From: a virus
Lineage: Duplodnaviria; Caudoviricetes
Length of the DNA stretch: 64,000 nucleotides
IMG/VR virus record: IMGVR_UViG_3300024331_000152
Span: 1-64,000 of that record
Reading direction: 5' to 3' (one strand)
This document shows positions 41,132-55,667 of this stretch, piece by piece. Under the pieces are notes generated by a model, which ran no database searches, had not been told where the DNA came from, and saw only the letters and a list, made by a program, of their open reading frames with translations. Within the stretch, counting starts at the first letter, position 1; the number at the start of each line of letters is the position of its first letter. A program made the position numbers and the translations under genes.

Positions 41132-41207
41132 GTACCGGAAGGTAAAGGCTGGAACCAGCGGTCCGCAAAACCGCTTTTAGCGAGTTGAACTCTCGCCCGG
41201 TACTCCA
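41132..41207 (+). tRNA. tRNA-Cys(GCA)
   Basis: GCGGT-CCGCAAA-ACCGC, acceptor GTACCGG/CCGGTAC, U73-CCA. Confidence 0.75.
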
Positions 41208-41217
41208 ATTTTGAAGT

Positions 41218-45216: not shown

Positions 45217-45291
45217 GGCTGTGTAGCTCAACCAGAGCACCCGTCTTCAAAACGGTAGGTTGCAGGTATACAACCCCTGTCACAGCCACCA
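45217..45291 (+). tRNA. tRNA-like with UCA (opal) anticodon, atypical D/T loops
   Basis: CCGT-CTTCAAA-ACGG, acceptor GGCTGTG/CACAGCC, ACCA; T-loop TATACAACC non-canonical. Confidence 0.6.
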
Positions 45292-46199: not shown

Positions 46200-46365
46200 A
46201 TGGAAGTCAAACGGAAAGAAATTGAAACGCTGATCGAAAAGTCAGCTAAAAGCACACGATTCTGGAGACGCTATGCGTTTTTCTCAGGCGGCATGTAATT
46301 GTGCAAATGCCATACGCTGCTTGCTCGACGCAGAACTCGAACAAGCTTGTTCCGGCCCGAAGTAG
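46200..46365 (+). pseudogene. Small phage gene with apparent frameshift at GCTAAAAGC
   Basis: MEVKRKEIETLIEKSAK continues as AHDSGDAMRFSQAACNCANA.. only if one A is skipped. Confidence 0.5.
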
Positions 46366-46368
46366 ACC

Positions 46369-46708
46369 GGTGGTTGCACCCCGCCTCGCCGCGAGGCTAA
46401 GTCGCGGCAGAGATTTAAGCATGTAGAAGGCAACTAATCAGATTTCGGACGTGGGTTCGAATCCCACCGAGTCCACCAATCAGCTAACGCGCCGGGGCGA
46501 AACGCCTTGGTTCAACGAAAGTTCAGCTAAGAGTTAAAGCTGGTCCGTTGGCTGATTTGTGGGCTCGCCAAGGTTTCGACGGGATCAGAAGACGTTGTGC
46601 AGTTCATGCCGAGTGCTGTGGCCTGCGTTAAGGGACACGGAAAAAACAAATGCAGATGCTTCGGCACTGCCGATGGCAGCCTAAAAACTGACGTCTGAGG
46701 GTGGCCGC
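46369..46708 (+). ncRNA. ssrA: Circularly permuted (two-piece) tmRNA
   Basis: T-arm plus CGAGTCC-ACCA ends 46478; hairpin-closed spacer; GGGCTCG..TTCGAC starts 46561 (G3:U70); tag ORF 46652-46684 ADASALPMAA-stop. Confidence 0.9.
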
Positions 46709-46745
46709 AATACTCATCAAAGAACCATGCGGCACAAATACGCTA

Positions 46746-47150
46746 ATGCCTTACAAAGACAAAATTAAGCGTGCAGAGTATTGGAGGAATTATGTAATTG
46801 CCAACCCTCACGTCAAAACCAGAACTAAGACCGACAGGAAGCGCGAGAACGGCGAGGGCTGGGAGATTAAGAACCGCATCCCCTTCAAGATCTCGTGCTG
46901 CGATTGTGGTCTCGTCCATAATCTGGTTATCGTAGCTCCGAATACGAGAAAGGGCGCAGTCCTTGGCATCGCTGCGGAACGAAACGAGCGCGCAACCGGA
47001 CAGAAGCGCAGACATTTAGTGACGAACAAGCCAGAGACGCCTGAGGAGGCGGCGCGCAGACTAGGCGTGTCGAAGAAACGTCTCGAATCAATTCGCGAAA
47101 TTATGTCGCGCCCTGTGTTACGCTCAAAGCGAAAACACTTGAATCCCTAA
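46746..47150 (+). CDS. Hypothetical protein (CCDCGLVH motif)
   Basis: MPYKD start, ISCCDCGLVH. Confidence 0.6.
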   Translation: MPYKDKIKRAEYWRNYVIANPHVKTRTKTDRKRENGEGWEIKNRIPFKISCCDCGLVHNLVIVAPNTRKGAVLGIAAERNERATGQKRRHLVTNKPETPEEAARRLGVSKKRLESIREIMSRPVLRSKRKHLNP

Positions 47151-47187
47151 GGCGTTCAGACCGCGAATCTGAGCGTCTCTTTTTTTC

Positions 47188-47216
47188 TTGACAACAGGCG
47201 CAGAGTTTCGTACCTT
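47188..47216 (+). promoter_or_regulatory. Sigma70 promoter, leaderless transcript
   Basis: TTGACA-17 nt-TACCTT, 6 nt before ATG at 47223. Confidence 0.75.
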
Positions 47217-47222
47217 CTGTTC

Positions 47223-47711
47223 ATGCATTGAATCGCCAACACGCATTCATACGTTTTCGTCCGGTACGATCTCTCCCTCGCACAATCTGTAATCCAGTCG
47301 AGCCATGCTACCCATTCGATGGCTAATGGGCTCTCCCAGAGCCCTGAAGTTCCGCATATCGTTCTGATCGGCGTTCCAGACGTCAAGGCCCTTGAACGGG
47401 TCATTCAAAAACTCCGCGACAATCACATTGAATTTGCTGCCTTCGATGAGCCTGACGATAATCTCGGCTTGACGGCGGTCGCTACTGTTCCTCTCAACGA
47501 AGAGCAGAGACTTGTGTTCCAGAACTACAAGATCTGGACTGAAGAAGAATACTTTTACACGCGCGTAGCTCAGTGGTCAGAGCACTCCGGGAGGTTGACG
47601 GAGAGGTCGGCTGTTCGAATCGGTCCGCGCGTACCATGGGCGGTTCATTCGGTGATGTATCCGGTTCGAATCCGGTATCGCCCACCATGCGCGGTTAGCT
47701 CGACTATGTAG
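47223..47711 (+). CDS. Pth2-like peptidyl-tRNA hydrolase with in-frame UGA at codon 3
   Basis: ATG CAT TGA, then in frame YVFVRYDLSLAQSVIQSSHA...IVLIGV....L.......F.EPD...GLTAVA. Confidence 0.75.
47559..47636 (+). tRNA. tRNA-like element with 9-nt anticodon loop (GGAGGTTGA)
   Basis: Canonical D and T arms, ACGCGCG/CGCGCGT-ACCA; no readable anticodon. Confidence 0.7.
47638..47687 (+). ncRNA. Mini tRNA-like element (acceptor plus T arm only)
   Basis: GGGCGGT/ATCGCCC-ACCA, CCGG-TTCGAAT-CCGG. Confidence 0.65.
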
Positions 47712-47737
47712 AGGGGAAGATCCTCGCCCGCGCTCCA
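47689..47737 (+). ncRNA. Mini tRNA-like element
   Basis: GCGCGG/CCGCGC-TCCA, GAGG-GGAAGAT-CCTC. Confidence 0.5.
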
Positions 47738-47743
47738 ATTCGA

Positions 47744-47819
47744 GCGCTCGTGGCTCAGCGGCAGAGCGCCGGTCTTCAAAACCGGGTCAGCGTGGGTTCG
47801 AACCTCACCGAGCGCTCCA
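47744..47819 (+). tRNA. Opal suppressor tRNA (UCA), Gly-like acceptor identity
   Basis: CCGGT-CTTCAAA-ACCGG, canonical cloverleaf, G1:C72 C2:G71 G3:C70 U73. Confidence 0.85.
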
Positions 47820-47926
47820 CTGAAATTTGAGGTAATATATTTCTGCGCGCCGAGCGCGAGACCTGATCAGATCCGTCTCAACGGGCTGGCACGATGTCCA
47901 GCGCATCTAGCAAAAGGAGAATCAAG

Positions 47927-48277
47927 ATGCGTACTCGTTGCAAGTTCCGTGTTGTTGGAATTGAAGATGTTGATCACCAGATCCAGAAAAGGATCTACAA
48001 AGATCAGGTAAGCGCTGAGGAATATGCGGCAATCGAGAGTTCGGAATGGCCAGACCGTAATGGATTTGGGGATATCAGAATGTACAAACTCGTTGGCCTC
48101 GGCCATGCCCAGAACATCCGGCTCGCCGCTCAGTATGATCCATCAATCCCCGAAGATCAGCGCTTTATGGAAGCAACGCCGACTGGAGAGTTGAAGTTTT
48201 ACGTCAGCAACCCAGCAGTGATCGGCGGCTTTCAGATCGGCAAAAATTACTACATTGATCTGATACCATGTGGCTAG
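47927..48277 (+). CDS. Hypothetical phage protein
   Basis: SD AAGGAG; RCKF.V ... E...F..ATP.G.L...V.NP.....F..GK.YYID. Confidence 0.75.
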   Translation: MRTRCKFRVVGIEDVDHQIQKRIYKDQVSAEEYAAIESSEWPDRNGFGDIRMYKLVGLGHAQNIRLAAQYDPSIPEDQRFMEATPTGELKFYVSNPAVIGGFQIGKNYYIDLIPCG

Positions 48278-53831: not shown

Positions 53832-53903
53832 TACATGGTAGCTCATTTGGTAGAGCATTCGCCTCTTAAGCGAAGGGTAGTCGGTTCAATTCCGAGTCGC
53901 AGA
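53832..53903 (+). pseudogene. tRNA-Lys(CTT)-like element without paired acceptor stem
   Basis: Intact D arm, TTCGC-CTCTTAA-GCGAA, TCGG-TTCAATT-CCGA; flanks do not pair, no CCA. Confidence 0.6.
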
Positions 53904-54628: not shown

Positions 54629-54646
54629 GTTGTTTGACAAGTTTAT

Positions 54647-54716
54647 AGGGGATGATCTGGGATCGACGAGGTCTCCAAAACCTCACAGCGGAGTTCAATT
54701 CTCCGATCCCCTGCCA
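54647..54716 (+). tRNA. tRNA-Trp(CCA), minimal D arm
   Basis: GAGGT-CTCCAAA-ACCTC, GCCA. Confidence 0.8.
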
Positions 54717-54798: not shown

Positions 54799-54854
54799 TT
54801 CACAGCGGTGTTCGCCTTACTCTGACGGCGCAATACCGTCCCGCTGTGAATCCA
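54799..54854 (+). ncRNA. Mini tRNA-like element
   Basis: TTCACAGCGG/CCGCTGTGAA-TCCA with 5-bp/7-nt arm GACGG-CGCAATA-CCGTC. Confidence 0.5.
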
Positions 54855-55579: not shown

Positions 55580-55585
55580 AGTTTT

Positions 55586-55662
55586 GCTGCCGTATCGGCC
55601 TCGCCTCCGAAGCGAGATCCCGTAGGTGGATAAGGCTGGTTCGAATCCAGTCGGCAGCTCCA
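55586..55662 (+). tRNA. D-armless tRNA-Arg(CCG)-like element
   Basis: GCTGCCG/CGGCAGC-TCCA, CTCGC-CTCCGAA-GCGAG, canonical T arm, no D stem. Confidence 0.7.
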
Positions 55663-55667
55663 GTTTT

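Follow-up and report, generated by a model that had tools for sequence, protein, structure and literature searches.

Conserved 49- and 50-nt tRNA-like genes without an anticodon arm beside a stop-locked Pth2-fold hydrolase-like gene of a bacteriophage

The window analysed here is the first 64 kb (64,000 nucleotides) of a soil bacteriophage genome from IMG/VR (record IMGVR_UViG_3300024331_000152; 142,794 bp, rated complete). At 47559-47737 it carries three CCA-ended units placed 1 nt apart, with the coordinates and sequences described in a first-pass annotation of the window: a cloverleaf transfer RNA (tRNA) gene, tRNA1, and two shorter units, E2 (50 nt) and E3 (49 nt). Sequence comparison indicates that E2 and E3 are mini-tRNA genes that lack the anticodon arm and are kept by selection, because two other phage lineages, both uncultured, have copies of matching length and covariation supports the fold. 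They belong to a cassette with a Pth2-fold hydrolase-like gene and a suppressor tRNA.

Each of the two units (Table 1) is set off from the one before it by a single T; the phage tRNA arrays contain seven such 1-nt spacers, all T, two around E2/E3 and five elsewhere. Neither unit has an anticodon arm. E2 has the top-half geometry of an RNase P-type substrate (stems of 7 and 5 bp, a T-loop, ACCA and U at -1), its first T-stem pair in the window being U.U, and the top half of E3 (7 + 4-5 bp with a 1-nt bulge, and UCCA) also has a geometry that fits a substrate of this type. A tRNA-like elbow is plausible in E2, because its T-loop is canonical and the loop of its small hairpin contains GG. Standard searches do not see the two units: ARAGORN made no call, and Rfam RF00005 gave no match even at E values up to 10. 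Two general measures were uninformative. On the two strands of the 143-kb genome together there are 75 instances of a 7-bp stem with NCCA and an interior of 20-50 nt and, since this motif is frequent by chance, its bare count cannot by itself establish E2 and E3. Folding energy compared with shuffled sequences (z-scores of -0.43 and -0.26) says as little about them as about the genuine tRNAs alongside, which score similarly.

The case for E2 and E3 is carried by relatives, which we retrieved both via the upstream open reading frame (ORF) and via the downstream one. In one lineage (L018/L030), whose Pth2-like protein is 63% identical, we found a Pth2-like gene, an odd tRNA, a 49-nt E3, a 50-nt E2 and a suppressor tRNA, the order of the minis being reversed relative to the window. 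A third lineage (L031) has both minis, with long tRNA-like RNAs between them. The E3 orthologues (L030:2897-2945 and L031:957-1005) and the E2 orthologues in the same two loci have the lengths of the window copies, and the Pth2-like proteins of the three mini-carrying lineages are ~62-63% identical. In all three lineages the minis measure 49 or 50 nt, whatever the order of the units, so that each behaves as a discrete gene.

A structure alignment of three E2 and three E3 copies shows the two to be paralogues with one shared plan. RNAalifold, unprompted, returned a 7-bp acceptor stem, a 3-bp D-like hairpin within the linker and a 5-bp T-like arm. Across the six sequences 96.6% of the cells of this three-helix fold are paired, as against 36-52% in controls with slid partners; changes on both sides are seen in 10 of the 15 pairs, and the covariation score was reached by none of 500 shuffles. 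The compensatory changes among related phages that the first-pass annotation had named as a check are thus present, and its suggestion of selection rather than decay is borne out by this pairing and by the constant lengths. It had described E2 and E3 as retaining only an acceptor stem and a T-like arm; the loss of the anticodon arm stands, but the units are not bare minihelices, as a 3-bp hairpin is conserved within the 15-nt linker.

At least eight further loci contain a GNRA-capped subtype of E2, also 50 nt long, in which the acceptor stem and ACCA are unchanged and two GNRA-capped hairpins replace the linker and the T arm, leaving no T-loop. In this subtype 98.8% of positions are paired and each of the two inner hairpins has one pair that is fully compensated; in a second copy in locus L142 all four pairs of the first hairpin are replaced. 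In 11 of 11 loci E2 has G1-C72, G2-C71, G3-C70, C4-G69, A73 and CCA, unlike the neighbouring tRNA-like genes, whose acceptor stems are variable. Because these four pairs, A73 and CCA stay invariant although the body has been rebuilt, the acceptor end appears to be constrained in sequence. The flanks, meanwhile, cannot be aligned among the lineages that keep E2/E3. Functionless remnants, that is, deleted tRNA pseudogenes carried in the tRNA cluster, would account for the clear tRNA descent of the units (a 5' TAGCTC-like segment, the T arm and CCA), for their unremarkable thermodynamic z-scores and for a close relative (G001) that manages without them. They would not account for the exact length, the 10 compensated pairs or the invariant acceptor end in the face of unalignable flanks and changed unit order, and the relatives do not show recent deletions of normal tRNAs. 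We therefore disfavour this explanation as very improbable.

G001, a complete 136-kb relative with syntenic tRNA order, has neither the Pth2-like gene nor E2/E3, which marks the block as an accessory cassette. Exact-pattern scans of IMG/VR for E2 and E3 gave matches only in two contigs of one relative. With a looser pattern for the E2 stem, 103 stretches were returned, nearly all of them chance matches within coding sequence, with true members in ~8 contigs. When a covariance model of E2/E3 (R1) was run on 287 kb of related loci plus five whole phage records, no additional strong member came up, and the GNRA subtype scores only ~17 bits against the model.

The acceptor end of E2 resembles that of one kind of cellular tRNA. 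In a search of 185,579 species genomes for full-length tRNAs that have the E2 stem and ACCA, we read 121 matches. ARAGORN called 113 of these, and all 113 were tRNA-Val (anticodons UAC in 56, CAC in 33 and GAC in 24). The pattern was present in 21 of 61 sampled Alphaproteobacteria, and the reversed control gave 0. E2 has the tRNA-Val acceptor type, with the stem GGGCGGU/ACCGCCC and A73, the window copy having G6.U67; the decoding tRNA-Val(UAC) of the phage itself (55668-55742) has an acceptor stem unlike that of E2. E3 carries G1:C72, C2:G71, G3:C70 and U73, the E. coli glycine acceptor identity set, in common with the suppressor tRNA(UCA) downstream. No cellular tRNA with the E3 acceptor was found in the 151 + 5 genomes searched, and the first 13 bases of E3 are shared with a phage-lineage tRNA-like gene of L003.

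These ends raise the question of whether host synthetases charge the units independently of the anticodon, E2 with valine and E3 with glycine. Charged in this way, they could donate aminoacyl groups to a reaction outside the ribosome, or could rival the Gly-type suppressor for charging, and the Pth2-like enzyme would recycle them. The tRNA-Val acceptor stem and A73 of E2, and the four elements common to E3 and the suppressor, agree with such a role, and minihelices can be charged in vitro with glycine and, weakly, with valine. However, bacterial valyl-tRNA synthetase depends strongly on A35 and C36, its major determinants, and E2, having no anticodon arm, lacks both valine anticodon bases. In addition, the E3 discriminator is C in one lineage, the E3 acceptors of L030 and L031 are unlike the local suppressor tRNA, and plant mitochondrial t-elements, the nearest natural analogue, are not aminoacylated. 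Taken together, this makes charging a distinctly unlikely role.

The full-size neighbour of the minis is also unusual. At minimum energy tRNA1 folds into a cloverleaf whose anticodon stem has 5 bp and whose anticodon loop, GGAGGTTGA, has 9 nt. Seven homologues, directly 5' of E2 in most loci, keep the acceptor stem, the D arm and the T arm; their anticodon region consists of tetraloops (GTTA, GCAA), other loops of 7-9 nt or inserts of 20-45 nt, and the family has no canonical 7-nt anticodon loop with U33 and a conserved anticodon. Because this region is not conserved among homologues, the sequences indicate that the family does not decode. For the same reason the Shine-Dalgarno-like GGAGG in the tRNA1 loop, which the first-pass annotation had pointed out, is to be read as incidental. 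The cellular tRNAs that match a degenerate acceptor and D-arm pattern of the tRNA1 family are mostly tRNA-Val, and this holds when one matching genome (G050) is left out. At L003:3519-3594 and L031:547-625, ARAGORN's 'four-base anticodon GCAA' is better read as a 7-8-bp stem with a GCAA tetraloop, which gives two further anticodon-less tRNA look-alikes. Relatives also have RNAs of 120-140 nt (L031:632-773 and 829-955; L047:906-1030; L032:2335-2452) with a tRNA acceptor stem, a T arm, mostly ACCA and a body of ~100 nt, interleaved with minis and suppressor tRNAs.

The ORF upstream of these units gave no match to Pfam and nothing in the PDB by sequence, and matched PHROG 3668 ('hydrolase') at E 1.1e-6. 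An AlphaFold model of the protein (eight homologues; pLDDT 68.8, moderate confidence) was searched against the PDB with Foldseek, and the 11 best distinct matches (to rank 12) were archaeal Pth2, human Bit1 and Atu0240, at TM ~0.65 and probability 1.0. On the strength of this fold search, since sequence searches alone did not show Pth2, the modelled protein is assigned as Pth2-fold hydrolase-like. Its frame follows an in-frame opal stop, which we call the lock, and stays open until the TAG at 47709-47711, within E3. The tRNA-like units lie directly 3' of a stop-less frame, and it is tRNA1, not E2 or E3, that abuts the coding region. We ruled out that the region encodes a C-terminal tail of the Pth2-like protein, as the tails are unrelated across genomes, because the order of the units differs. 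Also ruled out were tRNA-shaped introns within a split tRNA, both flanks of E2/E3 being complete tRNA-shaped genes.

The suppressor tRNA(UCA) starts six bases past E3. The relatives have locks of the forms M-H-stop, M-T-stop and MRKAIGDL-stop: L018:13256-13264 (- strand) opens with ATG-CAT-TAG and has a tRNA(CUA) downstream, L003:2942-2968 has an in-frame TAG and two tRNA(CUA) genes, and ~20 related metagenomic loci combine an in-frame TAG at the same place with a nearby tRNA(CUA). Two loci (L038 and L051) have a direct ATG start and no lock. Stop codon and suppressor anticodon thus agree, TGA/UCA in the window and TAG/CUA in relatives. Genome-wide recoding of TGA was ruled out, as 73 of 193 long ORFs stop at TGA. 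Because the stop codon matches the suppressor anticodon across genomes and TGA is still a stop genome-wide, the suppressor tRNA is the likely key to the hydrolase gene, and tRNA1, E2 and E3 are its non-decoding companions. A stop-locked Pth2-fold gene, a matching suppressor tRNA and non-decoding tRNA look-alikes together make up a recurring cassette. The association with Pth and transfer-messenger RNA (tmRNA) that had been noted on first inspection is real as a gene neighbourhood, according to the Pth2 fold search, the ARAGORN tmRNA call and the loci of relatives; in L040, L041, L043, L048, L053 and L054, too, the Pth2-like gene has a tmRNA upstream of it. The cultured phages GAP32 and Arash have a Pth2-like homologue and, as no tRNA-like units adjoin it, do not provide a model system.

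Several observations concern the ends of the hydrolase gene. In L030, L031 and L034, as in the window (47547-47711), the Pth2-like frame reaches the adjoining tRNA-like gene without meeting a stop and continues into the RNA genes. An RNase P cut at tRNA1 would leave a non-stop Pth2 message on which the phage tmRNA could act; this tmRNA lies 1 kb upstream and its tag ends in AA. In five other loci the Pth2-like protein itself ends in ...AA, resembling an ssrA degron (VCYAAA twice, SDVAA, EVEYAA and LLQEAA). The non-stop frame and these ssrA-like ends suggest that the hydrolase is built to be short-lived. Directly 5' of ATG-CAT-TGA, at 47150-47200, a terminator-like hairpin with a T run is followed by a TTGACA box, and the cassette may start its own, nearly leaderless, transcript.

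We propose that E2 and E3 would have arisen from tRNAs by loss of the anticodon arm, E2 from an ancestor of tRNA-Val type and E3 from a tRNA-like gene of the phage lineage with a Gly-type acceptor end. A single + strand transcript would cover the Pth2-like gene, tRNA1, E2, E3 and the suppressor tRNA; no terminator-like site was found between the Pth2-like gene and tRNA(UCA). The stacked top half, the encoded CCA, the U at -1 and the lack of an internal terminator make it most likely that the units would be excised in the same way as the neighbouring tRNAs, by RNase P at the 5' side and by exonuclease trimming back to CCA. The excised RNAs would be stable. A phage CCA-adding enzyme was not found in this genome.

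The units might be processing helpers and nothing else, cut sites for RNase P and 3' trimming that release the tRNA-like RNA before them at its 3' end and separate the Pth2 message from the RNA genes, with the excised pieces as by-products like those of plant mitochondrial t-elements. E2 and E3 fit the classical minihelix substrate of RNase P in top-half geometry, in their encoded RCCA or UCCA and in having U at -1. In several relatives, moreover, the GNRA-capped E2 comes last, behind the odd tRNA and before a hairpin with a T run. In the window, however, E2 and E3 already have a tRNA-shaped gene on either side, which makes extra cut sites look redundant and weakens the case for pure punctuation; cutting does not need tRNA-Val-type pairs 1-4 and A73 kept invariant across rebuilt bodies, nor two different paralogues side by side in three lineages. 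We regard processing as the sole function as possible but somewhat unlikely. Computation does not tell apart the three roles offered by the first-pass annotation, namely decoy, peptidyl acceptor and processing punctuation.

A peptidyl acceptor would belong to ribosome rescue. E2 could act like the tRNA-like domain (TLD) of tmRNA, either titrating SmpB against host trans-translation or being charged and accepting stalled peptides, which the Pth2-like enzyme would then release. E2 does have TLD architecture without the tmRNA body (acceptor stem, D-like loop with GG, T arm and no anticodon arm), and it begins with GGGC and ends with ACCA, as does the phage tmRNA 1 kb upstream. A TLD-only RNA can block trans-translation, perhaps via SmpB titration (PMC4131195). 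On the other hand, E2 has G3:C70 in 11/11 loci, as does E3, whereas the phage tmRNA has the G3:U70 required for alanylation; no match to the Rfam tmRNA clan was found in 47638-47737 at E values up to 10; and the GNRA subtype has no T-loop. Titration of SmpB would also hurt the phage's own tmRNA, a phage SmpB having been found in none of four genomes, this one included. We consider a part in ribosome rescue distinctly unlikely, as we do charging.

The reading that we prefer, and put forward tentatively as a possibility short of even chances, is that E2 and E3 are ~50-nt non-decoding mini-tRNAs that mimic acceptor ends and serve as bait or competitor. Unable to read codons, the products would act through the acceptor end, and their targets would be proteins that recognise certain tRNAs by acceptor stem and CCA tail, with E2 mimicking cellular tRNA-Val and E3 a Gly-type end. 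Candidate partners are the Pth2-like hydrolase of the cassette or, on the host side, immune or toxin enzymes by which tRNA 3' ends are cut or modified. The toxSAS FaRel2 chooses its tRNAs by base pairs of the acceptor stem and is efficient in modifying a synthetic minihelix of tRNA-Gly (PMC11559606), and Cas12a3, an immune enzyme that also selects tRNAs by acceptor-stem pairs, accepts minihelices or truncated tRNAs (PMC12851939). The bait role is speculative, and gains indirect support because the E2 acceptor is of tRNA-Val type and such acceptor-stem-reading enzymes accept minihelices.

Several points weigh against this proposal. The T-loop subtype is present in only three independent lineages, E2 and E3 are paralogous, so that part of the covariation counts one old divergence, and the Pth2-like locus of L006 has the odd tRNA without E2. 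That the E2 acceptor end copies cellular tRNA-Val is read from sampled cellular genomes; E3 may copy no host tRNA, because no cellular tRNA with its acceptor was found, and its discriminator (U, U and C over three lineages) is not strictly kept. We know of no acceptor-end effector specific for tRNA-Val. FaRel2 and Cas12a3 are both poor on E. coli tRNA-Val (PMC11559606, PMC12851939). Finally, a decoy of the substrate type would not easily neutralise a catalytic toxin unless it were very abundant or bound tightly.

An extended form of the bait idea, which we consider unlikely, is a bait-and-repair module for tRNA 3' ends, in which E2, tRNA1 and E3 would be baits and the stop-locked Pth2-like protein a cleaner of damaged or blocked ends. 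Its opponents would be toxSAS pyrophosphokinases, MenT-type nucleotidyltransferases, GNAT acetyltransferases and Cas12a3-like nucleases. In such a module tRNA1 would offer a Val-like body without an anticodon, E2 a Val-type and E3 a Gly-type acceptor, and the decoding tRNA-Val of the phage would escape, its acceptor stem being different.

The usual explanations for tRNA genes in phages are codon supply and the replacement of tRNAs destroyed by host anticodon nucleases. Here, by our reading, selection keeps no more than the tRNA end at which charging, modifying and cutting enzymes act, and of the two units one copies a host-type valine end. If the minis are baits or regulators, they would be a natural counter, made of RNA, to the lately discovered immune systems whose target is the tRNA acceptor end, and a ready-made tool in the form of stable 50-nt CCA-ended scaffolds. 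They also help to delimit a wider, undescribed phage cassette of a suppressor-dependent Pth2-type hydrolase and non-decoding tRNA look-alikes. In the literature we found no description of phage genes for CCA-ended mini-tRNAs, minihelices, decoys or anticodon-less tRNAs, or of a Pth2 cassette.

Table 1. Features of the mini-tRNA cassette and its surroundings (window coordinates)
Feature	Position	Strand	Details and basis
Permuted (two-piece) tmRNA, tag ADASALPMAA	46386-46775	+	ARAGORN; Rfam RF04321, 78.4 bits; upstream of cassette
ATG-CAT-TGA, in-frame opal stop before Pth2-like frame ('lock')	47223-47231	+	Direct reading
Pth2-fold hydrolase-like gene	47232-47558	+	Open frame 47232-47711, no stop before tRNA1
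tRNA1, full cloverleaf	47559-47636	+	ARAGORN tRNA; Rfam tRNA 51.1 bits (gathering threshold 29)
E2, mini-tRNA, 50 nt	47638-47687	+	Same-length copies and covariation
E2 acceptor stem	47638-44 with 47677-83	+	7 bp
E2 3-bp hairpin	47645-47 with 47653-55	+	Inside the former 15-nt 'linker'
E2 T-like arm	47660-64 with 47672-76	+	Loop TTCGAAT, 47665-71
E2 3' end	A73 at 47684, CCA 47685-87	+	Read from sequence
E3, mini-tRNA, 49 nt, paralogue of E2	47689-47737	+	Same-length copies and covariation
E3 acceptor stem	47689-95 with 47727-33	+	6 bp and a U.C mismatch as pair 7
E3 3-bp hairpin	47696-98 with 47704-06	+	Conserved fold
E3 T-like stem	47711-14 with 47722-25	+	Four pairs conserved
E3 3' end	U73 at 47734, CCA 47735-37	+	Read from sequence
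tRNA(UCA), opal suppressor, likely 'key' for the TGA at 47229	47744-47819	+	ARAGORN; Rfam 59.4 bits; clean cloverleaf
Conserved hairpin RNA	54799-54854	+	10-bp stem, 15-nt linker, 5-bp/7-nt inner hairpin; fold z -4.05

The hairpin at 54799-54854 had been listed on first inspection as a similar element, and it does have the layout of the minis in common, a 15-nt linker and a 5/7/5 inner hairpin. Homologues in G001 and G002 show compensatory changes. The 3' tail reads TCCA, ACGA and TTAAG across the three phages, so that CCA is not kept, the loop is not a T-loop, and there is no match with model R1. We set it apart because of its 10-bp stem, the non-CCA tail in relatives and the missing match, and by sequence it is a conserved structured RNA outside the E2/E3 family.

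The cassette sits in an array at 41-57 kb in which ARAGORN found 35 tRNA genes and the permuted tmRNA, all on the + strand; Rfam gave two tRNA hits beyond those 35. This phage has no close relative among 50,697 deposited phages, and blastn of 46300-48000 against these records gave no match. The array holds further aberrant units. At 41132-41212, between tRNA-Leu(UAA) and tRNA-Leu(CAG), lies an 81-nt CCA-ended tRNA-like unit, missed by ARAGORN and by Rfam at the gathering threshold, with an enlarged anticodon loop containing GCA and an odd D region; its counterpart in relatives is a tRNA-Cys(GCA). A second tRNA with a UCA anticodon (45217-45291; Rfam 49.1 bits, no ARAGORN call) has an aberrant T-loop. 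A CCA-ended unit at 55584-55663, called by no tool, has a 7-bp acceptor stem, a canonical T arm, a CCG anticodon loop, nearly no D arm and a long extra region. At 53838-53898 there is a partial Rfam tRNA match without an acceptor stem (37.9 bits, model positions 7-64), and at 54646-54713, directly 5' of a tRNA-Met, a weak match to the tRNA-Sec model (23.9 bits), which is probably the phage tRNA-Trp, as in relatives.

The nearest published kinds of RNA are plant t-elements, laboratory minihelix substrates, a TLD-only tmRNA of phage DS6A and mascRNA. Like E2 and E3, plant mitochondrial t-elements are tRNA-derived, non-decoding and CCA-bearing and take no part in translation; they lie at mRNA ends, and the enzymes that process tRNA ends recognise them (Forner et al. 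2007, PMC1920247; PMC11658184). They differ in being mostly full-size, having no encoded CCA, serving mRNA end formation and giving an unstable excised RNA, whereas E2 and E3 have no anticodon arm, encode CCA, lie between tRNA-shaped genes and keep a specific acceptor sequence. The acceptor/T-arm minihelices used as substrates for RNase P, the CCA-adding enzyme, several synthetases, FaRel2 (PMC11559606) and Cas12a3 (PMC12851939) have the same top-half geometry; these are synthetic laboratory RNAs, whereas E2 and E3 are natural conserved genes with an extra 3-bp D-like hairpin. The TLD-only tmRNA of mycobacteriophage DS6A is a phage tRNA-like RNA with neither anticodon arm nor message, for which titration of a protein that binds the tRNA domain was proposed (Hudson, Lau and Williams 2014, PMC4131195). 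E2 and E3, in contrast, have no G3:U70 and no similarity to the tmRNA model, and adjoin an intact phage tmRNA. The mascRNA and MEN-beta RNAs (Rfam RF01684) are non-decoding tRNA-like RNAs that end in CCA and are freed from a longer transcript by RNase P and RNase Z; unlike the minis, they are eukaryotic and nuclear, full and cloverleaf-like with a degenerate anticodon loop, receive CCA post-transcriptionally and have no homology to E2/E3. Phage T4 'species 1 and 2' (rnaC and rnaD) are small stable RNAs co-transcribed and co-processed with the phage tRNAs, and differ from E2 and E3 in being over 100 nt long, unrelated in sequence and free of a Pth2 cassette.

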